Assembly (NCBI GenBank): GCA_012729505.1
Contig: JAAYDA010000072.1
Coordinates: 76,162-140,161 of the forward strand
Direction of reading: 5' to 3'
From: Syntrophomonadaceae bacterium
Lineage (GTDB): Bacteria; Bacillota; Syntrophomonadia; Syntrophomonadales; DTU052
Length of the DNA: 64,000 nucleotides
The notes under the pieces are model-generated. The model was not told the DNA's origin, searched no databases, and saw nothing but the letters and a program-made list of their open reading frames with translations. Made by a program: the position numbers and the translations under genes. Shown one piece after another: positions 2,968 to 58,665 of this stretch (positions are counted from its first letter, which is position 1; each line of letters starts with the position of its first letter).

Positions 2968-3066
2968 AATTGCTCACCTCGGTTTCCATTTTGCTATCTT
3001 TAATGGATTAAAAGCCGGTGAACCACCAGGCGGGTTCTTAGAAAGTCCTTAATTATGTAAGCTTAT

Positions 3067-3202
3067 TTATCCGATAACTAATCTGCCCTAAGACCCCCCG
3101 CCTCTATAGGCGGCGGGTGCCCAAGGGCAGTTAAGTCCCTGGATCCGTGCGACTAAGATTCAGATGGAGTCAAAACTTCACCTGAATCAAGTCTTACTTT
3201 AT
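3067..3202 (+). repeat. Dispersed structured intergenic repeat, copy a (full length, consensus orientation on the plus strand)
   Basis: TTATCCGATAACTAATCTGCCCTAAGACCCCCCGCCTCTATAGGCGGCGGGTGCCCAAGGGCAGTTAAGTCCCTGGATCCGTGCGACTAAGATTCAGATGGAGTCAAAACTTCACCTGAATCAAGTCTTACTTTAT. The sequence is near-identical to 13485-13620 and 58447-58580 (reverse complement) and to 6481-6582. Confidence 0.85.
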
Positions 3203-4575: not shown

Positions 4576-5383
4576 TACTAAACCTCACTGCTGGATGGTG
4601 TCGGGTCATGGTCCCGCTTTGATTATGGTAAGTTTCCAAAGTCAACCTGGCCCCAAAAAGCCTTACAAAATTCGGATCATGGAGTACTGCCCGGGGATTG
4701 CCGGCTGCCAGAACAGTCTTATCCAGAAGAACGATGCGGTCGGCAAATTGAGATATCATGGCATGGTCATGGGAAACCATCAGTATCGAAAGATCGTAGT
4801 CTCTGCGCAGATCAGACACCATATTATAAAAAATCTCCAGCCCACGGGGATCGACTCCCGCAACCGGTTCGTCCAGAAGCAATAAATCCGGTATGGGATC
4901 AAGGGCACAGGCCAGGAGAACACGCTGCAGCTCCCCGCCTGACAGGTTGCTGATCCGCCTGTTAATCAGGTGCTCCGCCTGAAATCTAGCCAGATTTTCC
5001 ATAATCCGCTGCTTATCGGTTCGGGTATGGCTTATCCACACCGGAAAACTGGAGATACAGGCCGCACAGAAATCCAGTACACTGGCAGGAGAGCCTTTAT
5101 CAAGATCCAAATGCTGCGGGACATAACCAATCAGCGGATGGCCGGTGCGCAGTTCTTTGGCATCTAAAAAACTGAGTTTGCCGGTGAACGGCAGCTCTCC
5201 GGTCATAGCCTTCAAGAGTGTGGACTTGCCGGCACCGTTGGGGCCAATTAACCCCGTCAATTCACCACAGTGAATATGAAGATCAACGTCGTGAAGCAGC
5301 ACATTTTTTCCTATTTTAACTCCGAATTTCTCCAGCCGAGTACAGCATAAGTCACATTTTGACGTTTTGTTTTTATTAATCAC
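4568..5383 (-). CDS. Metal ABC transporter ATP-binding protein
   Basis: Walker A GPNGAGKST, signature LSGGELQR and Walker B LLLLDEP. Confidence 0.85.
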   Translation of the reverse strand: MINKNKTSKCDLCCTRLEKFGVKIGKNVLLHDVDLHIHCGELTGLIGPNGAGKSTLLKAMTGELPFTGKLSFLDAKELRTGHPLIGYVPQHLDLDKGSPASVLDFCAACISSFPVWISHTRTDKQRIMENLARFQAEHLINRRISNLSGGELQRVLLACALDPIPDLLLLDEPVAGVDPRGLEIFYNMVSDLRRDYDLSILMVSHDHAMISQFADRIVLLDKTVLAAGNPRAVLHDPNFVRLFGARLTLETYHNQSGTMTRHHPAVRFSND

Positions 5384-6315
5384 TAGCTGCCCAATGCCTC
5401 CAACAACACTTGCAGATTCCGGTTCATGATTTCAATGTAGGCTTCCGGCTCTTCGGGTCCGGTAACAGCCGGATCCAGAGTATACACCTGGGCACCGGTT
5501 TCTGTTGCAATAGTTTCCGCCGCCTTAGTTGAGTACTGGGGCTCGACGAAAATAGCCCGCACCCCGGATTGGCGTATAATATCGATAGTCTCTTTCAGCT
5601 CAGCAGCAACAGGCTCCGAACCCGGTTCCCGTTCTACAGTCGCAACAATGTTTAACCCAAACTCCTGGGCAAAATAGGGAAATGCCTCATGAAATGTAAC
5701 TATATTCCGATCTTCCAGGGAATCCAGCTGAGCATGCATTTCACTTTTAAGTTCCTCTAATTTCCGGATATAGTTTTGAGCATTACTCTGGTAACCCTGA
5801 GCATTATTGGGATCTGTTGCGGCCAGTTGATCGGCGATATTCTGAACCTGCTCCATGGCCAAAGAAATACTTACCCAAATATGAGCGTTCTTTTCGTGGT
5901 GATTATCTTCAATAAGCTCAATTCCCTCACTGGCATCTACTATTTTCAGTTCCGGCTGCTGAGCTATGACCTGATCGAGAAAGCTTTCCATATGGGCTCC
6001 ATTGACAACTAATATCTGAGCCTTATGTATTTTTTTCAAGTCATTGGTGGTCAACTGGTAATCATGAAGGCAGCCGGTCACTGTACCCGTCACATTTACC
6101 GCTTCTACCCCAGGTATATCCTGAGTCACATTGAGTACCATAATGTACATGGGATAAAACGAGGTGGCAATTACTAAGTTGTCTGATTCTTCTTGGCTGG
6201 TAGCAGCCGGATCGTTTCCGCATCCGGATAAGACAAAAGTCTGTGCTGCCAGAAAAAAGGCTAGTAGTATTCCAGAACACCATTGTTTTCGTGTCCAAAA
6301 GCGTCTTTTTTTCAT
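5383..6315 (-). CDS. Metal ABC transporter substrate-binding lipoprotein (TroA/ZnuA-like)
   Basis: 310-aa ORF with a signal peptide and lipobox (LSGCG). It has the cluster-9 binding-protein layout and a short His-rich segment (DNHHEKNAH). It is the first gene of the three-gene ABC operon. Confidence 0.8.
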   Translation of the reverse strand: MKKRRFWTRKQWCSGILLAFFLAAQTFVLSGCGNDPAATSQEESDNLVIATSFYPMYIMVLNVTQDIPGVEAVNVTGTVTGCLHDYQLTTNDLKKIHKAQILVVNGAHMESFLDQVIAQQPELKIVDASEGIELIEDNHHEKNAHIWVSISLAMEQVQNIADQLAATDPNNAQGYQSNAQNYIRKLEELKSEMHAQLDSLEDRNIVTFHEAFPYFAQEFGLNIVATVEREPGSEPVAAELKETIDIIRQSGVRAIFVEPQYSTKAAETIATETGAQVYTLDPAVTGPEEPEAYIEIMNRNLQVLLEALGS

Positions 6316-6480
6316 TTTGTTCCTCCTATGAGCAATCTACTAAAAGACCGTGGATATACCCGGCATAATTCAGTCTTTTCGTCAGATAATGCCTTAATCA
6401 CATTATAGCGCAACTTGTCTGCTCTAAACCTCCTTATAAAAATAATTCGCATGAATCCTCCAAATAATATAATTCATAGT

Positions 6481-6582
6481 TTATCCGATGACTAATCTGC
6501 CCTTGGGCAGTTAAGTCCCTGGATCCGTGCGACTAAGATTCTGATGGAGTCAAAACTCCACCTGAATCAAGTCTTATTTTAT
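6481..6582 (+). repeat. Dispersed structured intergenic repeat, copy b (short variant lacking the internal GC hairpin)
   Basis: TTATCCGATGACTAATCTGCCCTTGGGCAGTTAAGTCCCTGGATCCGTGCGACTAAGATTCTGATGGAGTCAAAACTCCACCTGAATCAAGTCTTATTTTAT. It matches copies a, c and d except that about 34 nt (TAAGACCCCCGCCTCTATAGGCGGCGGGTGCC) are absent. Confidence 0.85.
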
Positions 6583-6769
6583 TGAGCTTGGTGATGGCTT
6601 ATGTCTGCCAAATAAACTCTTTTTGCGTACATCCTTTGCTAAACGGGTTCTGGTTCTTTCCCTCTTGTTTTTCGGGCTTTACTATTGTAGATTGAAATGG
6701 ATTGTTGTTTTGAGATTCTTGGTGGTATCATAACTTCTGTGACAATAATTATGAGGCAGGCGTAGTACC

Positions 6770-8176
6770 ATGGCTGAACGTATTGAAGTCCGGAATAAAA
6801 TATTATTGGTGGCAACTCTGGCTGCTTTCCTCAGCCCTTTTATGGGCAGCTCTTTGAATCTAGCAATTCCTGCTATCGGCCAGGATTTAGATGGTAATGC
6901 TATCATGATTAACTGGATAATAACCGCCTTCCTTCTGGTTTCAGCAGCCTTTCTATTGCCTTTCGGCCGTTTGGCCGATATGCGCGGACGTAAAATAATC
7001 TTCGTAAGTGGAGTGGGAGTCTTCGGCACCGCTTCTTTGTTGTGTGGTGCAGCAAATTCCATGATGTTTCTATTATTGGCACGTATCGTACAAGGTCTGG
7101 GCGCCACCATGATGTTTTCCACCAGCATGGCTCTGGTAACGGCCGCTTTTCCCCCCCAGGACCGGGGCAGGGTACTGGGGCTAAATGTTGCCGCAGTATA
7201 TGTGGGCCTTTCGGTTGGACCGGCTCTGGGTGGTTTTGTGACTCAACACCTGGGCTGGCGAAGCATCTTTTATCTGGTAGCCTTTTTGAGCATCCTGGTT
7301 GCGTGGGCTTCTTACAAATGGCTGCCGAATGACCGTCACCGGGCTGAAAACGAAGAGTATGACCTTTTAGGTGCCGGATTGATTGTGGCCAGCCTGATGG
7401 CCTTAATTTATGGAGCATCCACCCTCCATACTGTCTCGGTGGGACCTGTCCTTGCTATCCTGGGCACCATTGGGATAGGAGGATTTGTGTGGCAAGAGCT
7501 TCGGGCGCCCAACCCCATTCTCGACATAAAGAATTTGATTTCTAATACCACCTTCATTATGTCTAATCTAGCCGCCCTCATCAATTTTAGTGCCACCTAT
7601 TCCATTGTCTACTTGTTGTCTCTTTATCTTCAGGTGATTCGTGGCTTTAGTGCTCAGGCGGCAGGTTTCATCCTGTTGATTCAGCCTGTATTAATGGCTA
7701 TTGTCTCACCCTATGCGGGACGGCTTTCTGACCGGTTCGAGCCTCAGATAGTAGCCAGTATCGGTATGTCCTTGACTGCCGTTGGCCTGGCCGTTTTAGT
7801 GACCATCGACTACAACACCAGCATATGGCTTATTGCCGGGGTCTTACTGCTTCAGGGCCTTGGTTTTGCCCTGTTTGGCAGTCCTAACATGAATGCAGTT
7901 ATGAGTTCTGTGGATCGCAGATTTTATGGAGTGGCTTCCTCAACTACCGGGACTATGCGTCTGGTGGGTCAAGCCCTTAGCATGGCCCTGGTGTCATTCA
8001 TCTTTGCCGCTAATCTCGGTGATGCCAAAATAACTTCGGCCATTGCCCCGGAGCTGTTGAGCAGCTCCAAGATGGCTTTCGGGATCTTTACCGTTTTATG
8101 TTTCGCAGGGGTTTTTGCCTCTTTATCCCGGGGAAAAGTGCATACCAGGGAAACTCCTCCCTCTGAAAGTCATTAA
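6770..8176 (+). CDS. MFS transporter, 14-TM DHA2 (EmrB/QacA-like) drug:H+ antiporter family
   Basis: 468-aa ORF with about 14 hydrophobic segments and the MFS motif GRLADMRGRK after TM2. Confidence 0.75.
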   Translation: MAERIEVRNKILLVATLAAFLSPFMGSSLNLAIPAIGQDLDGNAIMINWIITAFLLVSAAFLLPFGRLADMRGRKIIFVSGVGVFGTASLLCGAANSMMFLLLARIVQGLGATMMFSTSMALVTAAFPPQDRGRVLGLNVAAVYVGLSVGPALGGFVTQHLGWRSIFYLVAFLSILVAWASYKWLPNDRHRAENEEYDLLGAGLIVASLMALIYGASTLHTVSVGPVLAILGTIGIGGFVWQELRAPNPILDIKNLISNTTFIMSNLAALINFSATYSIVYLLSLYLQVIRGFSAQAAGFILLIQPVLMAIVSPYAGRLSDRFEPQIVASIGMSLTAVGLAVLVTIDYNTSIWLIAGVLLLQGLGFALFGSPNMNAVMSSVDRRFYGVASSTTGTMRLVGQALSMALVSFIFAANLGDAKITSAIAPELLSSSKMAFGIFTVLCFAGVFASLSRGKVHTRETPPSESH

Positions 8177-8240
8177 CCACAAAAATGATTGTTCCCTGAA
8201 TGATTTCCGGCTGTACAAAGCTTATAAAGGTGTGTTGGGG

Positions 8241-8927
8241 ATGAATGTGAAAATTGAAGCTTGGACTGGAATAAAAGCGGCAGTTCCCGTTATCTTAGCC
8301 TATATGCCCCTGGGGCTGGCTTTTGGGGTACTGGCAAATGAAGTAGGCCTGACCGTATCTGAGGCCACCTTGATGTCGGCTCTGGTCTTTACCGGTGCGG
8401 GCCAATACATTGCCATCGGCCTGCTGGCGGCGGGAGGATCGGCCTTTACAATTATAATGGCCAATTTTCTGGTTAACATCCGGTATCTGTTATTTTCTGC
8501 TTCATTGGTACCGCATCTTAAGAAGATTCCTACCGGTCTGGCTTCTGTTTTGATGTTGGGATTGACTGATGAAACTTATGCAGTTGCCGCAGTTCATCTT
8601 CGCGAAAATGAGGCTACTGTACCTTACCTGGCCGGACTGAATCTTAGTTCTTATCTTTCATGGGTAGCCAGCACCTGTCTGGGGGCCGGCATAGGCCATA
8701 TGATTGCCAATACTGATCAATTAGGGTTAAATTTCGCTCTGCCGGCCATGTATACTATTCTGCTGATTTTGGTTATCAGCAGCCGCAAGCATTTGGCAGT
8801 TGCAATCATAGCGGTTGTGCTGTGTTTGCTAATCGCCTTTTTGTTCCCCTCTACTCTTGGCAACCTTTCAAATATTATTGCAGCCACCCTTGTGGCTGCT
8901 ACGGCAGGGGTGATGATAAAACGATGA
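8241..8927 (+). CDS. azlC: AzlC-family branched-chain amino acid exporter subunit
   Basis: The ORF-track frame 8115-8927 is trimmed to ATG at 8241 (MNVKIEAWTGIKAA...), which is preceded by AAAGG. It is a polytopic membrane protein, and the ATGA overlap with the following small AzlD-like gene is the classic azlCD arrangement. Confidence 0.7.
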   Translation: MNVKIEAWTGIKAAVPVILAYMPLGLAFGVLANEVGLTVSEATLMSALVFTGAGQYIAIGLLAAGGSAFTIIMANFLVNIRYLLFSASLVPHLKKIPTGLASVLMLGLTDETYAVAAVHLRENEATVPYLAGLNLSSYLSWVASTCLGAGIGHMIANTDQLGLNFALPAMYTILLILVISSRKHLAVAIIAVVLCLLIAFLFPSTLGNLSNIIAATLVAATAGVMIKR

Positions 8928-13484: not shown

Positions 13485-13620
13485 ATAAAGTAAGACTTGA
13501 ATCAGGTGGAGTTTTGACTCCATCTAATTCTTAGTCGCACGGATCCAGGGACTTAACTGCCCTTGGGCACCCGCCGCCTATAGAGGCGGGGGTCTTTAGG
13601 GCAGATTAGTCATCGGATGA
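13485..13620 (-). repeat. Dispersed structured intergenic repeat, copy c (consensus orientation on the minus strand)
   Basis: The reverse complement is near-identical to copy a, including the internal CCGCC-TCTATA-GGCGG hairpin. Confidence 0.85.
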
Positions 13621-13764
13621 ACTCCCGGCCGACTTTGATACTGTATATTATACGTGTTTGACCTCTATTACTTCAATTGTTTGATTATAGATGCCCTCCG
13701 GTCACAACCCGCTTTCTCAATTCACTTTCATTTTTCGGTTTTGCCCTTGGCAGCAGACTTTTTG

Positions 13765-16795: not shown

Positions 16796-18631
16796 CTATC
16801 TTCTGCGCTTAAAAAGCCAGGCCAGTACTATTGCGGCAATGATTGCAGCCGTTGACGGAATCAACCAACCAGCCGGCTGAACGTCAGAATCAGATGCTCT
16901 ATCCTTTTTGCCTCCCGGCTGCATACCATCCGGCCTGAATCTATCTTCGCCATCCCCCGGTCTCATGTTTCCTTGGTCACCGGCCATCATCTCCAGAAGC
17001 TCATCTGGAATGCCTAACTCCTTCGCCTCTTCCTTAAGCTGATCAGTCAGACTGCCTTCTTCCTGAATCTTGTGGCGAAATTCCTCCAGCTCTTCCCGCC
17101 CTATATCATCAGGCAGTGCCATGCCAGGAGGAGCTGCCTGCATATTAGGCCTTTGATTGCCCTCGTTGTTCCGGCCCGCCGGAGGTCGTCCGCCTTCCAT
17201 GGCCGGGAATTGCTGTCCGCCAGTCCCTTCTCCTTCCGGCATTGGCCGTTGTTGATCCCCGCCTTTGCCTTTCATGCCATCTGAACCATTGCCACTATTT
17301 GTTGAGGGCATCTCCCCCCTGAGCTGTTTCAAAATGCTATCGCCGGCGGTGGCCGCCAGTTCCATGATTCCAGGAACATTCTTGCCCAAGCCACCTGCTC
17401 CGGAAGGGGCCTGAAGGAAATTCTGCTCCTCTTCTTCGGCCATGACTCCGCCTTCAATGGTACCGGCAATACTTTCCTCAAACTGTTGATAGGTATAAAA
17501 AGCTGTAGGATCAGTTTTCACATATTCGCTGATCAAGTCAAAAAGGCGCGATGTTTCATCCTGCAAATATTCACCCTGTAAATACCCGGTAACCATCTGC
17601 AGCAGATATTCATGATATGTTTCCCGATATTTTTCGTTCTCTAACAGCTTGGCGACCAGTGGTCTGTCAGCCACCGTCCCCTGAACAGGCTCATCGATAT
17701 ATATTCCGCCAGAGCCGCCAAACCCGCCAAAAGACATGTTTAAGTCCCAGGGCAGAATGGTAAAGACCCCGCCCTGTTCATACAGATAGTAATTATGACC
17801 GAAATTGCCCAGATAGCTGTCAAAGTTGGCCAGAGCAGTGTTAACTGCAATATATTTTAAGGCCTGATCAACATCCAGGTATTTTTCTATATCATCACCG
17901 CCATTGTTTAACACATCCAGCATCTTGATAAGCTTTGACCAATCGGCATTTTTCAGGCTGCTCTTGACCTCTAAGCCGCTATAATCAGATTTACTGTCAC
18001 CGTTGTACTTCAGGGTGTTGCCCACAGACTTATACAGATCCCCAGTCACATCACCGAAGTTTTGAGCCAGATACGGCTCCAGAATACTCTCAACCGCTAA
18101 ATAAAGCCCGAAATACTCTCCATTCACATAAACTGCCGCATAAGCGAAAGCAGGCACAGGCACTCCCATTTCCTCAAATATCTGATATGACAGATACTCA
18201 CGCATATATGACAGATCAGAAAAGCAGTTGTTCAGGTTTAGCTGGGTCAGTCCCTCCAGGGTCTGATTCTCGATGAGATCGCCAAAGTTTATCTTAAAGC
18301 TATAGCGGCTGCTGTCACTATGTGCTACCGATGAAAGGCTGGAATTACCTTTAGCTCTGACGTTAACCAACGGATACACATCCCCATTGACCACCACCGT
18401 CCCAGTCTTGTATTCTTCCAGGGAGGCATTGGCCAGAATGTCATCCCAATCATCCTCACTGATTTGTATATCCACCGTCATCACTTTATCTTTTTGAAAA
18501 TACTTCTCAATATATTGCTGATTCGATAATGACATAACACCTGACTTGGTATATTGGCCGGAGGCGGCAAGTATAAGTCCTGTGAAAAGCACCATTACCA
18601 TAACCAGCGGTATGAATCCGCGCTTATACAT
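16796..18631 (-). CDS. cotH: CotH-family (atypical kinase fold) protein with an N-terminal signal/anchor, a Gly/Pro/Glu-rich linker and a C-terminal hydrophobic anchor
   Basis: 611-aa ORF. The region VNVRAKGNSSL...YSFKINF...LNLNNCFSDLSYMREYLSYQIFEEMGVPVPAFAYAAVYVNGEYFGLYLAVE matches the CotH domain pattern I know. The C-terminus is ...WLIPSTAAIIAAIVLAWLFKRRR. Confidence 0.75.
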   Translation of the reverse strand: MYKRGFIPLVMVMVLFTGLILAASGQYTKSGVMSLSNQQYIEKYFQKDKVMTVDIQISEDDWDDILANASLEEYKTGTVVVNGDVYPLVNVRAKGNSSLSSVAHSDSSRYSFKINFGDLIENQTLEGLTQLNLNNCFSDLSYMREYLSYQIFEEMGVPVPAFAYAAVYVNGEYFGLYLAVESILEPYLAQNFGDVTGDLYKSVGNTLKYNGDSKSDYSGLEVKSSLKNADWSKLIKMLDVLNNGGDDIEKYLDVDQALKYIAVNTALANFDSYLGNFGHNYYLYEQGGVFTILPWDLNMSFGGFGGSGGIYIDEPVQGTVADRPLVAKLLENEKYRETYHEYLLQMVTGYLQGEYLQDETSRLFDLISEYVKTDPTAFYTYQQFEESIAGTIEGGVMAEEEEQNFLQAPSGAGGLGKNVPGIMELAATAGDSILKQLRGEMPSTNSGNGSDGMKGKGGDQQRPMPEGEGTGGQQFPAMEGGRPPAGRNNEGNQRPNMQAAPPGMALPDDIGREELEEFRHKIQEEGSLTDQLKEEAKELGIPDELLEMMAGDQGNMRPGDGEDRFRPDGMQPGGKKDRASDSDVQPAGWLIPSTAAIIAAIVLAWLFKRRR

Positions 18632-30062: not shown

Positions 30063-30154
30063 TCATTTCAATGGGTGCAGTTTGCCTGCTATCTGCTTTT
30101 CGATCTCTCCTGCCATCCACACGTCCCCCGGGCGACTTAAGTGGCAATGATCAC
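30063..30154 (-). pseudogene. Relic 3' fragment of a paralog of the SGNH-like gene at 32314-33249
   Basis: Coordinates 30084-30154 match 32323-32393 at 66 of 71 positions. The fragment translates on the minus strand as ..DHCHLSRPGDVWMAGEIEKQIAGKLHPLK*, compared with CDHCHLSRPGAVWMVREIEKQIAGRV* in the intact gene. No upstream coding continuation exists. Confidence 0.7.
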
Positions 30155-32313: not shown

Positions 32314-33249
32314 CTATACTCTGCCTGCTATCTGCTTTTCGATCTCTCTTACCATCCACACGGCCCCCGGTCGGCTTAAGTGGCAATGATCACAGTAGTT
32401 GCTGTGTTCTCTGGTAAAGAACTCGTACTCTGGGGTATTAAAGTCCCAGACATAGTCGCTACTGTCAAACAGGGGATCGAGATCCTGGTGCATTTCCTCA
32501 TAAAACTCACGTTTCTGGTCATAGATCTCATATGGACGCGGGTAATAGTAGGCAAAAACCTTGATTTCGTTTGCGTGAGCCAAATCAATAATGGCTTTCA
32601 AGTCCTTTTTAGCCTGTTCCGTTACCTTGAACTGATCAGTTCCCCACTTACGGCTCTTGGTCAGAGCCGCAGCAATGGCCTGCTCCACGTCCTGCTTGTC
32701 TTTATACCGGTTAAAGTCGTAGTGCCCATATTCATTGTAGTAATTCCTGGTCCCCCGGTATTGATTTACGATCTTATCGTAATAATAGCGGTATAAATCT
32801 ACCGAACCCAGCGCACTCCAATAATCCTTTCGGCTGAGATAGCTGGTCTTTCGCCCCGAATCCTTGGTCAGGTAGGGGTCCAGACAGATGATGAAGAACT
32901 TGACCTTTCGATTGTGAGCAACTATGCTTTCTGCCATAATTCTCAATTCTGTGAAATTGCCGCCGTTGATCGAGGCATTGTAGACTTTCAAGTTCTCGAA
33001 TAGTGCCGGATCAAGGTTGTCAGCCAGTGAAGGTCCCCAAATCACGCCTTCGAAATTGGCGGGGATGTAGTTATAGGTGTATAGATACTTGGCCCAACGC
33101 TCCCAGTCCCGGGAGACCGGTTCCCTTTTCAACCCCGCAGCATCCCCTATCAGGGCAAACTCATTCACATAGCTGGTGAACAGCACTATTAATAACAACC
33201 CGAAGACGGTTATTATCATGGATCTAGTTAAAAATTGCTTAAAAGTCAT
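32314..33249 (-). CDS. SGNH/GDSL-like protein with an N-terminal TM anchor, putative partner of the MBOAT acyltransferase
   Basis: 311-aa ORF overlapping the MBOAT gene by 11 nt. Candidate SGNH blocks are WGPSLADN (Ser), NASINGGN (Gly/Asn) and CDHCH (DxxH). The family assignment is an inference. Confidence 0.5.
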   Translation of the reverse strand: MTFKQFLTRSMIITVFGLLLIVLFTSYVNEFALIGDAAGLKREPVSRDWERWAKYLYTYNYIPANFEGVIWGPSLADNLDPALFENLKVYNASINGGNFTELRIMAESIVAHNRKVKFFIICLDPYLTKDSGRKTSYLSRKDYWSALGSVDLYRYYYDKIVNQYRGTRNYYNEYGHYDFNRYKDKQDVEQAIAAALTKSRKWGTDQFKVTEQAKKDLKAIIDLAHANEIKVFAYYYPRPYEIYDQKREFYEEMHQDLDPLFDSSDYVWDFNTPEYEFFTREHSNYCDHCHLSRPGAVWMVREIEKQIAGRV

Positions 33250-36423: not shown

Positions 36424-36732
36424 CTACCAACTACGCCGGGGCTGACTCTGGAAACAATCCCGACAATAGACGGGCTTTTCACCACTCGGCTGAAAGGGAA
36501 CTGTGGTATCGTTTCCACATGATGCGCAAACCGCCGGGTACATTTGGCGCTCGGAGCGTCCATATCCGCCACGGTTACCGCCTCTCTGCTCTGCTTTACG
36601 GGCCGCACGGCATTCCGGGCAACGGCCAGGCTCATTAGTAAAGCCTTTCTGCGCGTAAAATTCCTGTTCAGATGCACTGAATAAGAAATCGTTTGAGCAA
36701 TCCTTACAGCTTAGGGTTTTGTCATTGTACAT
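36424..36732 (-). CDS. Double CxxC zinc-ribbon protein
   Basis: 102-aa ORF with CKDC...CPEC and CASC...CRDC pairs separated by an RGG-rich linker. Confidence 0.65.
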   Translation of the reverse strand: MYNDKTLSCKDCSNDFLFSASEQEFYAQKGFTNEPGRCPECRAARKAEQRGGNRGGYGRSERQMYPAVCASCGNDTTVPFQPSGEKPVYCRDCFQSQPRRSW

Positions 36733-36984
36733 TAAAAAACCTCCTCATAATTGCCCATTCCTGGGGAAGCAGCTGTTCTCTTACTTCCCTAGCCGAGGCG
36801 ATCGAGAAGGGCTAACATCAGTCCACAAGCATGGAACATATAGCTATTTTAGTTTATATCAAAGGAAAAAGCAAATATTTAGTTTGATTTTTCCCAGCCG
36901 GCCACCAATTAATACTTGCTGTTAAAATATTATATAAATTGAAATCTTGCCCTTAACTTATGCCAAGCGAACTTTACACCAATG

Positions 36985-37327
36985 TCAATGTTCAGGGAAA
37001 GTGTCATGTCAGGACTAGCAGGAGGCACAAATAATTTAGCAGAGATTTAGCTCCCGGATTCGGCACGGGATGAATTCCAGCGTAGTGACCGTAGGGATGA
37101 GAACCGAGCAAACACCTGCGAAGGTGAGGCAGAAGAGCAGCCGAGGGACAGGAGGTCCCAAGTCCGCCTCCTGAGCCATGGAGGGCGAATTGGCGGTGTG
37201 CTGCTCGGATGCCGAACTTGAGCTAGTTGTATTTGCCGGTTCTCATTCCGGGAGCAAGTGGAATTCATCCCGTGTCTCCGCACCCAACTTCAGAATTGTT
37301 GGGATGACATTATCGCTGATTAACAAC
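36985..37327. mobile_element. Non-coding composite element with terminal inverted repeats (MITE-like), copy 1, with a 211-bp core bounded by inverted repeats (37064-37274)
   Basis: The left end is TCAGGGAAAGTGTCAT (36992-37007). The core is bounded by a perfect 16-bp inverted repeat, CACGGGATGAATTCCA at 37064-37079 and 37259-37274. The right end is ATGACAT at 37304-37310. About 90 percent identical to 50536-50908, with the arms swapped and inverted. Confidence 0.8.
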
Positions 37328-37367
37328 AGCAAGCTTTACTTCAGGAGCCCGCCCTCGAAAAATATCG

Positions 37368-38693
37368 TTATATAAAGCCCAGTTTTTTTGCCCCGAAGCG
37401 CAGCTCATCGCGGAAATCAGGATGGGCAATGGAAATCAGCGATTCCACTCGGGTTTTTATGTTCTGGCCTTTAATCAGCACCGCCCCGTATTCAGTTACT
37501 ACCCAATGAGCATCGGCGCGGGGAGTTGATACAAAGCTGCCGTAATCAAGAGACGGCACTATCTTGGATCTTGGCTGTCCGTTCTTATCTTCATAAGTGG
37601 ATGGCAAGGCTATAAATGACTTTCCACCTTTGGAGAGCCACGCACCCATAACAAAATCAGCCTGTCCACCCACCCCCGAGAACTGAACCGGCCCCACCGC
37701 CTCGGAAGCACACTGGCCTGCTAAATCTATCTGCATGGTAGAATTGACCGAAATCATTTTGTCGTTCTTGGCAATCAGGAAAGGATCGTTTACAATCCCA
37801 CAGGTATGCATTTCGATCAAGGGATTTTCGTGCAGGAAATCATACAGTCTTTGGGTTCCCCAGGCAAAAGCCGCCACCCACTTGTAAGGCATGAAAGTCT
37901 TTTTGCTGGAAGTGATAACTCCGGCCTCATATAAATCCAGCATACTCTCAGTAATCATTTCCGTATGTACGCCCAAATCCCGTTTATTCATCAAAGCTCG
38001 CCCTACCGCATTGGGTATTCCCCCGATTCCCAACTGGATGGTAGCTTCATCTGGAACCATCTCCGCTATATTCTCACCTATTCTGATTTCTACATCAGTC
38101 AGAGGGATGTCAGGTATATAAGGCAAGGGAACATGGTGTTCCACCAAAATATCCACTTCCGAAACATGAACATGATTGGTCCCATTGGTCCTGGGCATAT
38201 AGCTGTTCACCTCCAGAATGAACAAACGCCGTTCAGGATTGGCTTTGGCCTGCCCCCATCCATAATCCACATTGATTCCGGTACTGAAAAATCCATGCTG
38301 GTCCATGGGAGATACTCTGAGAATGTAAACATCTCCGGTACGCAATTTCTGGAGTGAAATAGCATCCATGTCACTTAACTTAATGGGTGAATAAGTAAAA
38401 TATCCCGCTTGGGTTTGGGCACGAGTATATGGACCCACAAAAGGAGTATCAAAATCAATTTTATCGGTTATGTCGGGATCATTCAGGGAGGTAGGCACCA
38501 CAACATTGCCGGCAAAAACTGAAGGCTTAATCAATTTCCCAGCCTTAACCCGATTCCCGATGGCTTCAAACATCCCGAAAGGTTGTCCGCCACCCAATGC
38601 ACAACAAATTTGTTCTCCATCTCTAATCTTAGCGGCGGCTTCATCCATAGTCCTTAACTTGGATTTATACATTTCCTCATATTTGTTTCCCAT
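37368..38693 (-). CDS. Acetyl-CoA hydrolase/transferase family protein (4-hydroxybutyrate or butyryl-CoA:acetate CoA-transferase-like)
   Basis: 441-aa ORF with SGVGGQADF and HTEMITE motifs typical of the family. Confidence 0.8.
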   Translation of the reverse strand: MGNKYEEMYKSKLRTMDEAAAKIRDGEQICCALGGGQPFGMFEAIGNRVKAGKLIKPSVFAGNVVVPTSLNDPDITDKIDFDTPFVGPYTRAQTQAGYFTYSPIKLSDMDAISLQKLRTGDVYILRVSPMDQHGFFSTGINVDYGWGQAKANPERRLFILEVNSYMPRTNGTNHVHVSEVDILVEHHVPLPYIPDIPLTDVEIRIGENIAEMVPDEATIQLGIGGIPNAVGRALMNKRDLGVHTEMITESMLDLYEAGVITSSKKTFMPYKWVAAFAWGTQRLYDFLHENPLIEMHTCGIVNDPFLIAKNDKMISVNSTMQIDLAGQCASEAVGPVQFSGVGGQADFVMGAWLSKGGKSFIALPSTYEDKNGQPRSKIVPSLDYGSFVSTPRADAHWVVTEYGAVLIKGQNIKTRVESLISIAHPDFRDELRFGAKKLGFI

Positions 38694-48195: not shown

Positions 48196-50424
48196 ATGCG
48201 GGAGGGAGTGGACTTTGTGCAGGGAAATCCCTTGAAAATGCATCAAATTTGGAAAATGGTACATCAAAACGGTCATTGTGATGGTATATCCATTTCCGAT
48301 GATATAAGACAATCCTGGGCTCGCAGTAAAGCGGCCGGCGTTGACCAATACAAACGTTATTGTGATTATGTTTTGGATGCCAGAGAATTAGAAACCCTCA
48401 AGAACAATAACCGAACCCTCTTGGAACAAGCTGAAATCATGCTGGGACACCTGAATCAGTTTTTGGGAGAAACGGGTTTTGTTTTCGTGTTATCCGATTA
48501 CAAGGCAGGCTGCATTCTCATAAGGGTTGGCGGGCAAGCCGCAATGGATTTTGCCAACCATTCCAATATGGTGGAGGGTTCAGTTTGGACAGAGGAGACG
48601 ATGGGAACTACCAGCGGTTTGATGGCCAGCATTTTGAAAAAACCGGTGCAGTTTTTCGGATATGAAAACTACTGCCGGGTGGCCTCATTTGCCTGCAGCG
48701 CCTCATCGCCAATTTTTGATGAAGATGGCGAAGTAGTAGGGATTATTACCCTTTCCGGACCATACCATCTGGTAAATCATCATACCCTGGGAATGGTGGT
48801 GGCGGCTTCGCGAGCAATTGAACGCCAGATGGCCCTTAAAGATGCCTATGAAAAAAGCGAAATCGCGTATCAGAACAGTGAAATGGAAAACCTTTTCAAA
48901 ACCACCATAATGGACTCCATGTCAGAGGGAGTATTAACCTTGGACCCGGAAGGCAGGTTGACCCATATCAATCAAATTGCAGCTGAATGCCTGGGCATTA
49001 ATTATAAGAAATCCATCGGGGCTAAACTGGCGGACTTGATGGCTCCGGAAAACGAACGGTTCTTCTTTGATATTTCCAGCAACCATAGAATGTCAAACGA
49101 AACCAGATTAATTAAACACAAAGATGAAATGGTGAAACTGGCGGTCAGCTGCACTCCCCTGATTGGTAAGAAAGGCCGCAATATGGGGAACGTAGTAATC
49201 CTGCAGCAAATGAAGCAATACAAACGTTTGATTGAACGGCTTTCCGGTTCCCAAGCCAACATTACTTTTGATAACATCATCGGAGAAAGTAAGGAATTTC
49301 AGTTTGTCGTTCAATCAGCCAAAATAGCTGCCGAGTCGGATTCCAACGTTTTATTGCTGGGCGAGAGCGGTGTTGGCAAGGACATGTTCGCCCAAGCCAT
49401 TCACAACGCCAGCAGCCGGTCCGGGGAACCTTTCTTTGCCATAAACTGTGCCGCCCTTCCCAGGGAGCTAATATCCAGCGAGCTTTTCGGATATGAGGAA
49501 GGCGCTTTTACAGGCGCTCGCAAAGGGGGAAATCCAGGCAAGTTCGAGCTCGCAGATCAGGGCACCATTTTTCTCGATGAGATCGGTGAAATGCCACTGG
49601 ACCTTCAAGGTACTCTTTTGCGATTTATTGAGGAAGGAACGTTAATAAGATTGGGCGGCAGAGAGGTAATACCGATAAATGTTCGAATTATCGCCGCTTC
49701 CAACAAGGATCTGCTGGAAGAGGTCAAAAAAGGCAGTTTCAGGCTAGACCTCTATTATAGATTAGATGTAATTAACATTAAAATTCCGCCTTTGCGTGAT
49801 CGAAAAGATGATATTCCCCGTTTGAGCCAGCATTTTATAGAGGTTATCGGCCCCAAGCTCCGTAAGAGGATCGAAGGCATTGAAGAACAGGCCCTTGAAC
49901 TCTTAATAAAATATAATTGGCCGGGCAACATCAGAGAACTTAGCAATGTTCTTGAACGGGCCATTAATTTTACCAACAGCGAGGTACTAACATTGCATGA
50001 TATTTCAGCGGAAGTAAAAGAAAACGGCCCGGAAGGAAAGTTTAAAGGGGAAACACATATAGGCAGAGACGAAATTGTGGGGTTGATAGAATATTTAGCG
50101 TCAATAATCAATCCTGTTACAAACTTCATTGACGAACAACCTGTTGAAAGCGGTACCGGCAGAGAAGAATACGGCAATACCAATGTGGGTAACATTAATA
50201 GCCGGCCATTGCCCGGAAACGATTTCTCCCGGCAAGGCAAAACCAATGACATTATAATTTTGCCAAAATCAAAATTAGAGCGGAACAAGGAACTGCTGGA
50301 AGCTGAAATAATCAAGAATTGCCTGCAAAAGCATAAGGGGAATAAAAAGAAAGCCGCCCATGATCTGGGGATTTCCCGCAGCAGTCTCTACCGAAAAATC
50401 GATAAACTTTCAATTGATACGTAG
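48196..50424 (+). CDS. Sigma-54-dependent transcriptional activator (N-terminal sensory domain, PAS, AAA+ and Fis-type HTH)
   Basis: 742-aa ORF with GESGVGKD (Walker A), GAFTGA (the sigma-54 contact loop), FLDEIGEM and a C-terminal HTH (KKKAAHDLGISRSSLYRKI). The start codon is uncertain (48196, 48217 or 48238). Confidence 0.9.
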   Translation: MREGVDFVQGNPLKMHQIWKMVHQNGHCDGISISDDIRQSWARSKAAGVDQYKRYCDYVLDARELETLKNNNRTLLEQAEIMLGHLNQFLGETGFVFVLSDYKAGCILIRVGGQAAMDFANHSNMVEGSVWTEETMGTTSGLMASILKKPVQFFGYENYCRVASFACSASSPIFDEDGEVVGIITLSGPYHLVNHHTLGMVVAASRAIERQMALKDAYEKSEIAYQNSEMENLFKTTIMDSMSEGVLTLDPEGRLTHINQIAAECLGINYKKSIGAKLADLMAPENERFFFDISSNHRMSNETRLIKHKDEMVKLAVSCTPLIGKKGRNMGNVVILQQMKQYKRLIERLSGSQANITFDNIIGESKEFQFVVQSAKIAAESDSNVLLLGESGVGKDMFAQAIHNASSRSGEPFFAINCAALPRELISSELFGYEEGAFTGARKGGNPGKFELADQGTIFLDEIGEMPLDLQGTLLRFIEEGTLIRLGGREVIPINVRIIAASNKDLLEEVKKGSFRLDLYYRLDVINIKIPPLRDRKDDIPRLSQHFIEVIGPKLRKRIEGIEEQALELLIKYNWPGNIRELSNVLERAINFTNSEVLTLHDISAEVKENGPEGKFKGETHIGRDEIVGLIEYLASIINPVTNFIDEQPVESGTGREEYGNTNVGNINSRPLPGNDFSRQGKTNDIIILPKSKLERNKELLEAEIIKNCLQKHKGNKKKAAHDLGISRSSLYRKIDKLSIDT

Positions 50425-50535
50425 TGTCACCAGCGCATCATCCTCAAGGAGGCAGATCAGCAACCAGTCCGGGAGAATATTGCACTCCATTTTACATCAT
50501 ATGCACGATAATACAATACACTGCACGAAAAACAT

Positions 50536-50908
50536 GTTGTTAATCAGCGATAATGTCATGGTATTACTCATCAGGGAAAATGTCATCCCGACAATTCGGA
50601 ATTTGGGTGCGAGACACGGGATGAATTCCAGCGTAGCGACCGTGGGGATGAGAACCGAGCAAACCTCTGCAAAGGTGAGGCAAAAGAGCAGCCGAAGGAC
50701 AGGATGTCCTGAGTCCGCCTCCTGAGCCATGGAGGGCGAATTGGCGGTGTGCTGCTCGGAGGCCGAACCTGAGCAGTTGTTTTTGCCGGTTCTCATTCCG
50801 GGAGCAAGTGGAATTCAATCCGGGTCGAATCCGGGAATCAAATCTCTGCTAAAGTATTTGTGTCTCCCACTAGTCCTAACATGACATTTTCCCTGACCAT
50901 GACAAACA
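50536..50908. mobile_element. Non-coding composite element with terminal inverted repeats, copy 2 (core 50615-50824)
   Basis: The terminal inverted repeats are TCAGGGAAAATGTCAT (50571-50586) and ATGACATTTTCCCTGA (50881-50896). The core is in the same plus-strand orientation as copy 1, but the flanking arms are the reverse complement of the copy 1 arms. Confidence 0.8.
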
Positions 50909-50941
50909 CAGCACTAATAGCAACGTTATGTGTACACATTC

Positions 50942-52759: not shown

Positions 52760-52782
52760 CTTGTTTATTCCTCCTAACAATA

Positions 52783-52940
52783 GCCAGAAGCCGCACCCTT
52801 TGTCTCCTCCATTACCGGAGGTTTTTGCAGAGCGGCTAACGATGCCGGCACACCGTGGGGCATCCGCCGATAATTCGATAAACCCCACCCTCGTCAACCT
52901 ATCAATATAAGCCATTTCTGATAGGTCCAGGCGCTTGCTT
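52783..52940 (-). ncRNA. glmS: glmS ribozyme (glucosamine-6-phosphate activated self-cleaving riboswitch)
   Basis: The minus strand reads AGCGCCTGGAC...GGTTGACGAGGGTGGGGTTTATCGAATTATCGGCGGATGCCCCACGG...GCCGGC.... This matches the B. subtilis core AGCGCCAGAAC...GTTGACGAGGAGGAGGTTTATCGAATTTTCGGCGGATGCCTCCCGG. The boundaries are approximate. Confidence 0.85.
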
Positions 52941-52980
52941 TGTTGAGCAATAGTCAATATTCTACTGCCCAACCCAGATT

Positions 52981-58407: not shown

Positions 58408-58446
58408 AGAACCCCCCCTTTTTAAAGGAACCCGATCTGAAAGAAG

Positions 58447-58580
58447 ATAAAGTAAGACTTGATTCAGGTGGAGTTTTGACTCCATCTGAATCTTAGTCGC
58501 ACGGATCCAGGGACTTAACTGCCTTTGGGCACCCGCCGCCTATAGAGCGGGGGTCTTAGGGCAGATTAGTCATCGGATCA
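58447..58580 (-). repeat. Dispersed structured intergenic repeat, copy d (consensus orientation on the minus strand)
   Basis: The reverse complement is near-identical to copies a and c. It lies between the cimA stop codon and the multi-PAS gene start. Confidence 0.85.
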
Positions 58581-58665
58581 ATTTGTTCTCCGCTAATAAC
58601 CCATATAGAATACTATTCTGCCAATGCTTGCTTGTTCCTCCAAAAAGACGTGAAGTTTTTCCTGG

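Follow-up and report, generated by a model that had tools for sequence, protein, structure and literature searches.

The 64-kb window (the whole stretch of DNA analysed, 64,000 nt) contains two copies of a small repeated element, both intergenic. The genes on either side of copy 1 encode a treble-clef zinc-finger protein (36424-36732, minus strand) and an acetyl-CoA hydrolase/transferase (37368-38693, minus strand), and copy 2 lies between a sigma-54 activator gene (48196-50424, plus strand) and glmS (from 50942, minus strand). The initial annotation had described two intergenic copies, each directly past stop codons, and the mapped neighbours and gene coordinates agree. No further copies or solo arms occur in the 64-kb window, and the tested window ORFs of at least 250 aa include no transposase or recombinase, as the annotation had also reported for the vicinity of the element. 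BLAST of the element against plasmid and phage collections gives no match. The core is open in a minus frame, and its translation, compared with a protein database as a check for a spurious ORF, likewise matches nothing.

Each copy has a GC-rich core flanked by two dissimilar arms (Table 1). The cores (37064-37276 and 50615-50826, about 213 nt) match each other in the same orientation with 92-93% identity, whereas the arms match as swapped reverse complements: 36988-37079 pairs with 50809-50900 (92 nt, 85%) and 37304-37328 with 50535-50559 (25 nt, 100%). The layout is A-core-B in copy 1 and rcB-core-rcA in copy 2; thus, the core of copy 1 is inverted relative to its arms. This inversion was missed in the original picture of two arms and a core, and the claimed identity of about 90% over more than 300 bp shrinks accordingly to the 213-nt core, the only co-linear part.

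Table 1. Features of the two element copies (window coordinates; L numbers denote retrieved loci).
Feature	Coordinates	Strand	Description
Copy 2, element read as a complete MITE	50535..50904	+	370 bp; alignment with L063, L050, L044, L041, L055; canonical order: left end, arm hairpin, sense RNA module, right arm, right end
Copy 2, left TIR	50535..50559	+	TGTTGTTAATCAGCGATAATGTCAT, outer bases TGT; 100% match to the reverse complement of 37304-37328
Copy 2, inner TIR box repeated internally	50570..50586	+	ATCAGGGAAAATGTCAT, 10 nt inside the terminal TIR
Copy 2, arm hairpin	50587..50607	+	CCCGA-N11-UUGGG, GGA in loop
Copy 2, RNA module (TwoAYGGAY-like core)	50615..50826	+ (sense)	GGA-loop hairpins 50696-50710, 50726-50737
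Copy 2, right TIR	50880..50904	+	CATGACATTTTCCCTGACCATGACA, outer bases ACA
Copy 2, target-site duplication remnants	50518..50534 and 50906..50922		about 12-13 of 16-17 positions identical
Copy 1, element read as a MITE	36983..37328	-	346 bp; canonical left-to-right order reads on the - strand
Copy 1, left TIR	37304..37328	-	TGTTGTTAATCAGCGATAATGTCAT read on the - strand; lacks the 27-nt spacer and second box of copy 2
Copy 1, arm hairpin	37283..37303		CCCAAC-N9-GTTGGG; loop GGA lost (UCUGAAG)
Copy 1, RNA module	37064..37276	+ (sense)	antisense to own MITE ends; GGA-loop hairpins 37145-37159, 37175-37186
Copy 1, basal stem of RNA module			perfect, 16 bp, CACGGGATGAATTCCA / TGGAATTCATCCCGTG
Copy 1, right TIR	36983..37007	-	TGTCAATGTTCAGGGAAAGTGTCAT read on the + strand
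Copy 1, target-site duplication remnants	36967..36982 and 37329..37344		11-12 of 16 identical

A scan of the window at Rfam gathering thresholds returns a glmS ribozyme and one tRNA only. The ribozyme (110 bits; 52780-52946, minus strand) lies upstream of glmS; the genes after it have phosphoglucomutase/phosphomannomutase and YbbR domains and are interpreted as a glmM and cdaR-like arrangement. This arrangement and a CotH gene at 16796-18631 point to a spore-forming Bacillota host. The window also harbors a second dispersed repeat family of 85-137 nt with 92-96% identity, present in both orientations at 3066-3202, 6478-6582, 13485-13621, and 58446-58582; the Rfam gathering scan finds nothing there. 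Its hairpin, GATTCAGrTGGAGTCAAAACTyCACCTGAATC, recurs at L046 3520-3560 and, in L063 and L020, on the downstream side of the element. A 72-nt direct repeat with 93% identity occurs 2.2 kb apart (30083-30154 and 32322-32393) around a DUF6179 gene region.

The arms are limited to a subfamily comprising copy 1 (W1), copy 2 (W2), L063, L050, L044, L041, L055, L064, and L060. In seven of eight aligned elements, the left end reads TGTTGTTGATCAGCGATAATGTCAT and the reverse-complemented right end TGTCAATGGTCAGGGAAAATGTCAT, forming imperfect TIRs of about 25 nt with the tips 5'-TGT...ACA-3'. A duplicate inner TIR box is conserved inside the left end of W2, L063, L050, L044, and L050b; it is absent from W1 and L041 and not seen at the right end. 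The two 16-mers that the initial annotation took for the terminal repeats of copy 2 do lie at the positions given there, yet the one at 50571-50586 is this internal box and not the left TIR. Copy 1, credited with a single end, keeps both (36983-37007 and 37304-37328), and the CCCAAC-N9-GTTGGG hairpin noted earlier is its arm hairpin. The loop of that hairpin carries GGA or GGGA in six of seven copies with arms, copy 1 being the one in which it is lost.

Target-site duplications of 16-18 bp that differ from copy to copy abut these ends, with 16 of 16 positions identical in L041, 15-16 of 16 in L063, an exact 16 nt in L050, 13 of 16 in L055, and 12 of 16 in both W1 and W2. When the left flank of one copy is instead compared with the right flank of another, the maximum is 10 of 16 and the mean 7.2 (n = 42). 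A local-alignment test separates the two sets in the same way, the same-copy flanks scoring 16, 16, 13.5, and 10.5 versus a cross-copy mean of 5.2 (SD 1.1, maximum 9). Insertion duplicated about 16 bp of target. The earlier description of the element as MITE-like is supported by the TIRs, the long copy-specific target-site duplications, and the many dispersed copies. A 180-bp core-deleted derivative (L050 1882-2058, L050b) and a solo end in L046 are what one would expect of a transposon family in decay. A pair of boxes 2 kb apart in L046 was considered and rejected, one box being a chance match at the start of a gene (an ORF read as thyX) and the other the solo MITE end.

Two side observations concern the flanks of these elements. 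The heptamer TGTCAAT, the reverse complement of the right tip of the element, stands directly 5' of the left target duplication in L041, L044, and L050, and copy 2 has a weaker form, TACAAT, at window 50512-50517; the motif may be a target-site preference. At L055 3695-3770, the IS1202-type left TIR is followed by the ACGCTGATT / TATGAT module of another subfamily, which replaces the second box and the arm hairpin, a mosaic showing that flank types have recombined by way of the core they share.

In the IS1202 family, the imperfect TIRs are 24-26 bp long and tipped with TGT/ACA, and the TIR is repeated internally, 7-10 bp further in (PMC10132070). Its ISTde1 subgroup, found in Firmicutes, generates target repeats of 15-17 bp (bioRxiv 10.1101/2022.12.17.520857). 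The TIR length, tips, internal box, and target-site duplication length of the present elements agree with this group, which employs a TnsB-like DDE transposase and has been reported from Firmicutes as well as from phyla that typify anaerobic reactors. The elements differ from it in lacking a transposase gene, in size (346-370 bp as opposed to about 1.5 kb), and in having the internal box at the left end only and not in every copy. Neither the tested ORFs of the window nor about 600 kb of retrieved loci yielded a cognate autonomous IS or a transposase with the same TIRs. The match of the ends to a catalogued IS family signature removes much of the novelty claimed for the element at the outset. 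A literature search turned up no MITE of the IS1202 family. The Coxiella elements QMITE1/2 are likewise small, non-autonomous, and bounded by TIRs, and their stable hairpin transcripts yield small RNAs (PMC10969869); in contrast, the interior described here belongs to an independently conserved RNA class that also occurs outside transposons, and transcription would have to be assumed.

The family of cores was retrieved with an exact metagenome scan for a 19-mer from the core apex, which yields 54 loci with about 35 full-core instances at 81-98% identity and 22 distinct full copies. One bioreactor sample contains at least 18 cores on 13 contigs. Related bioreactor bacteria carry the same RNA module in dozens of copies, of which only a part lies within this MITE. 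Conservation starts and stops at the inverted repeat that bounds the core. This repeat varies between copies and stays complementary (e.g., ACGTAATAGATTC / GAATCTATTACGT in L016), such that the core bounded by inverted repeats recognized in the initial annotation stands, while its nature changes: it is a strand-specific structured RNA module, and the bounding repeat is its covarying basal helix.

The consensus fold from RNAalifold comprises 64 pairs, 23 of them with compensatory changes, and 96% of the alignment cells are paired. Double-sided changes in 23 pairs compare with 10.7 +/- 1.9 in shuffled alignments (0 of 500 reaching the observed value) and with 5-8 when the pairing partners are slid. 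The sense strand has 100 G·U cells and the antisense strand 19, and the fold energy is -151 kcal/mol on the plus strand versus -126 kcal/mol on the minus strand. The asymmetry and the stabler plus-strand fold place the structure on one strand, which is the plus strand in both window copies. Counted across the entire MITE, GGA is equally frequent on the two strands (11 versus 11). Within the module, GGA is invariant in both apical loops (22 of 22 copies), a figure inflated by the retrieval with an exact apical 19-mer, which biases the sample toward apical conservation; in two internal loops, it is kept in 18 and 22 of the 22 copies. The module is one long irregular hairpin with a covarying basal helix and two adjacent apical GGA stem-loops.

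A hairpin this large, placed after stop codons, could act as a transcription terminator or as a stabilizer of 3'-UTRs. The position of both window copies and the very stable fold would fit such a role. The family as a whole does not: no U-tract follows the hairpin, no terminator is called, and across 39 loci the copies are all intergenic and take every orientation relative to their neighbors, often between divergent genes, so that the module is not a consistent leader or terminator. This role is hardly credible.

TwoAYGGAY (RF01731, clan CL00106) has been an orphan RNA class since 2010. Copy 2 aligns with positions 1-168 of its Rfam model with 22.9 bits (E = 0.37 over 451 nt), which lies below the gathering threshold of 43 bits, and copy 1 gives no match at E <= 10. 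That threshold is passed by none of about 22 members, including those on 20 further loci and both window copies. An exact-pattern scan of a genome collection returns three loci, all bona fide TwoAYGGAY RNAs, and the genome of the window is not among the matches. The 19-mer is part of a 23-24-nt stretch (GAGCCAUGGAGGGCGAAUUGGC) over the second loop that is common to three such RNAs. Eleven bona fide TwoAYGGAY RNAs were retrieved at full length, three from the genome collection and eight from metagenomes, and score 98-107 bits in Rfam; one further metagenome match is truncated and scores 68.7 bits.

The reverse comparison employs a model, R1, built from the GC-rich core family only. R1 matches all 11 bona fide RNAs over their full length and with the Rfam boundaries (37-42 bits, E 4e-8 to 9e-7, model positions 1-171), although part of this score is inflated by the apical 19-mer retrieval; loci that share just the 19-mer score 12-21 bits. 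In the AYGGAY loops, loop 2 reads AUGGAG (5 of 6 positions), whereas loop 1 reads CAGGAG or CAGGAU, which keeps GGA and lacks the Y; the enclosing helix is present and covaries. Both RNAs have in common a long irregular helix that encloses a pair of neighboring apical GGA hairpins (CA-GGAKG and CAUGGAGG), the identical 23-24-nt stretch, full-length alignment in both directions, and an occurrence in Clostridia-like Bacillota. They differ in GC content (58% in the module and 42% in the classical RNA), in an extra covarying basal helix that extends the module to about 215 nt from about 165, in the hairpin 1 loop without the Y of AYGGAY, and in distribution, the module being multi-copy, dispersed, and partly transposon-borne where the classical RNA is a single syntenic gene. 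Judged from these comparisons of sequence and predicted fold, the module is a divergent, GC-rich relative of the TwoAYGGAY class. The initial annotation had recognized no standard RNA family; the relationship holds, though below the curated threshold.

In Lachnospiraceae, the classical RNA is single-copy and occupies one syntenic locus, 83 nt upstream of an N-acetylmuramoyl-L-alanine amidase gene (L065 920-1082 and equivalents in L001, L025, L029, L057, and L066). It lies at the edge of a 3.4-kb block of 98% identity whose flanks vary between genomes. A mobile element was considered for this block and rejected because the block encodes the amidase, an AsnC regulator, and glutamate dehydrogenase. 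In L001 and L002, a second short match about 1.9 kb from the RNA is weak (E = 0.1). A divergent TwoAYGGAY-like RNA from another metagenome (L017 7726-7859, plus strand, 52% GC) scores 43 bits with the model built from the core family and falls below Rfam gathering. More undetected variants of the TwoAYGGAY class probably exist.

On this evidence, each copy is probably a non-autonomous MITE of 346-370 bp with IS1202-type ends of the ISTde1 subgroup and a structured RNA module of about 215 nt in its interior. A TnsB-like DDE transposase encoded at another site would mobilize such an element in trans. The element represents an unusual version of what is already known and not a new kind of system.

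A purely selfish palindromic MITE would account for the hairpin as a DNA-level mobility feature (cruciform or single-strand) without RNA function, with the likeness to TwoAYGGAY being convergent or trivial. TIRs and target-site duplications, multiple intergenic copies in any orientation relative to genes, scans that found neither promoter nor terminator, and the existence of deleted and rearranged derivatives all agree with an element of this kind. Set against it are the 100:19 asymmetry of G·U versus A·C, loops that are invariant while the stems covary, the occurrence of most cores without these TIRs, and the reciprocal full-length match to a single-copy syntenic RNA gene of Lachnospiraceae outside any transposon, and a DNA-only role is therefore unlikely.

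Copy 1 departs from the canonical layout in that its RNA module is inverted relative to its own ends and its left end is single-box. The eight other distinct copies with arms have the canonical orientation and an imperfect 3' stem strand, GGAATTCAATCCGGGTC, so that copy 1 is the only inverted one (1 of 9). The arm-core breakpoints of copy 1 fall inside the basal stem, and only in this copy is the stem perfect, its 3' strand being the exact complement of the 5' strand. Copy 1 may be a rearranged derivative whose module flipped through an event spanning the inverted repeat of its basal stem, and the simplest cause of the perfectly complementary stem would be template switching at a quasi-palindrome. 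In its present orientation, the RNA of copy 1 lies antisense to the left end of the element.

The two orientations might also reflect an inverton, in which a site-specific recombinase flips the core between the 15-16-bp inverted repeats and toggles between sense and antisense RNA. The core does lie between inverted repeats and, within a single 64-kb window, is found both ways round with respect to the arms; however, the repeats vary from copy to copy with the covariation of an RNA helix, unlike a conserved recombinase site, only one in nine distinct copies with arms is inverted, and the tested window ORFs contain no recombinase. The copy 1 junction is found on eight independent contigs from different assemblies (L004-L009, L011, and L012; six spanning and two junction-only), all in the same orientation with 100% identity, as consensus assemblies in which minor orientation variants are invisible. 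An in-situ inversion polymorphism at copy 1 was rejected, all eight contigs being identical to the window, and copy 1 is read as a fixed rearrangement and not as a switch. An inverton is very improbable.

Most cores lack these arms and occur in other repeat contexts with flanking duplications of 20 or 36 nt; thus, the IS1202-type ends do not explain the spread of the whole family. In L034 (approximately 5368-5404 and 5674-5710), a unit of 25 nt, core, and 32 nt lacks a terminal inverted repeat and has a perfect 36-nt direct repeat on its two sides. In L043, a 14-nt perfect inverted repeat and a 20-nt direct repeat surround the core, and L059 has two cores in a 287-nt tandem duplication. Copies outside the MITE also have a conserved 3' tail with three to five AAGGAA repeats, followed by tandem units of about 58 nt with a long hairpin (GCGGGAAGCACGAATCTC...GAGATTCGGCTCCCGC); examples are L016 ~4800-5100, L031 ~8000-8350 (minus strand), and the 3' sides of the cores in L014, L037, and L067. 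Arrays of 7-nt repeats (GTGAGGC / GGGAGGC or the complement) flank many cores on either side, as at L030 ~6640-6740, L014 ~6950-7060, and the flanks of L037 and L059.

These contexts bear on the possibility that what primarily moves or duplicates is the RNA module, through an unspecified mechanism with variable long duplications, and that it is nested in an unrelated IS1202-type MITE, the two orientations then representing two independent insertions. Cores in several unrelated flank contexts, the direct repeats of L043 (20 nt) and L034 (perfect, 36 nt), the tandem duplication of L059, and mosaic copies such as L055 would be consistent with this. The core-less derivative speaks against it: the first ~23 nt of the core are kept at a junction common to L050b and L024, which marks a deletion and not an empty target. 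Moreover, the junctions of copy 1 lie exactly inside the basal stem, which is homogenized, and fit in-place inversion better than re-insertion, and all eight other copies with arms have one orientation. Independent movement of the module is accordingly improbable, and a MITE carrying the RNA module as its interior is the preferred reading.

The CsrB/RsmZ small RNAs offer a functional comparison. Like the module, with its several loop-exposed GGA motifs, they present GGA in hairpin loops and are encoded by multiple gene copies per genome; they differ from the module, which has only two to four conserved single-stranded GGA sites per RNA and for which CsrA binding is putative. The sequence ACAGGAUGU of copy 2 matches the high-affinity CsrA consensus. 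The known CsrA antagonist in Firmicutes is a protein, FliW. TwoAYGGAY has been predicted bioinformatically to bind CsrA (PMC4333381), and no validation of this binding was found in the literature. A tblastn search with a Bacillus subtilis CsrA sequence finds no csrA in the window and the retrieved loci, which cover a tiny fraction of any genome. Promoter and terminator scans of both window copies, a non-MITE family member, and the classical locus remain at chance level with nothing convincing. A candidate -10 element in the left end (TGGTATTAC or TATAAC) is weak, does not end in the conserved T, and is not present in single-box copies.

Expression of the module and its binding by CsrA are inferred. 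The RNA would be transcribed inward from the left end, where a parent IS would carry its transposase promoter, and could act as a decoy by titrating a GGA-binding protein, for example CsrA, as proposed for TwoAYGGAY; transposition and duplication would then set the decoy dosage. It is a tentative and rather doubtful proposal that a Firmicute amplified a GGA-loop decoy of the TwoAYGGAY class to dozens of copies, partly as cargo of an IS1202/ISTde1-type MITE under a left-end promoter, with transposition setting the dosage of an RNA that antagonizes CsrA or a different GGA-binding protein.

Within the IS1202 family, the long-TSD branch has received little study, and the element appears to be a MITE of that branch that has not been described before; annotation pipelines would take elements of this kind for plain repeats. 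Its interior represents a divergent TwoAYGGAY subfamily that the curated Rfam model misses and that numbers dozens of copies per genome, and it adds sequence diversity for defining the conserved core of the class. The variation in copy number constitutes a natural dosage series for testing the decoy idea. If true, that idea would give Firmicutes their first RNA sponge for CsrA and provide a case in which a transposon spreads a regulatory RNA as its cargo.
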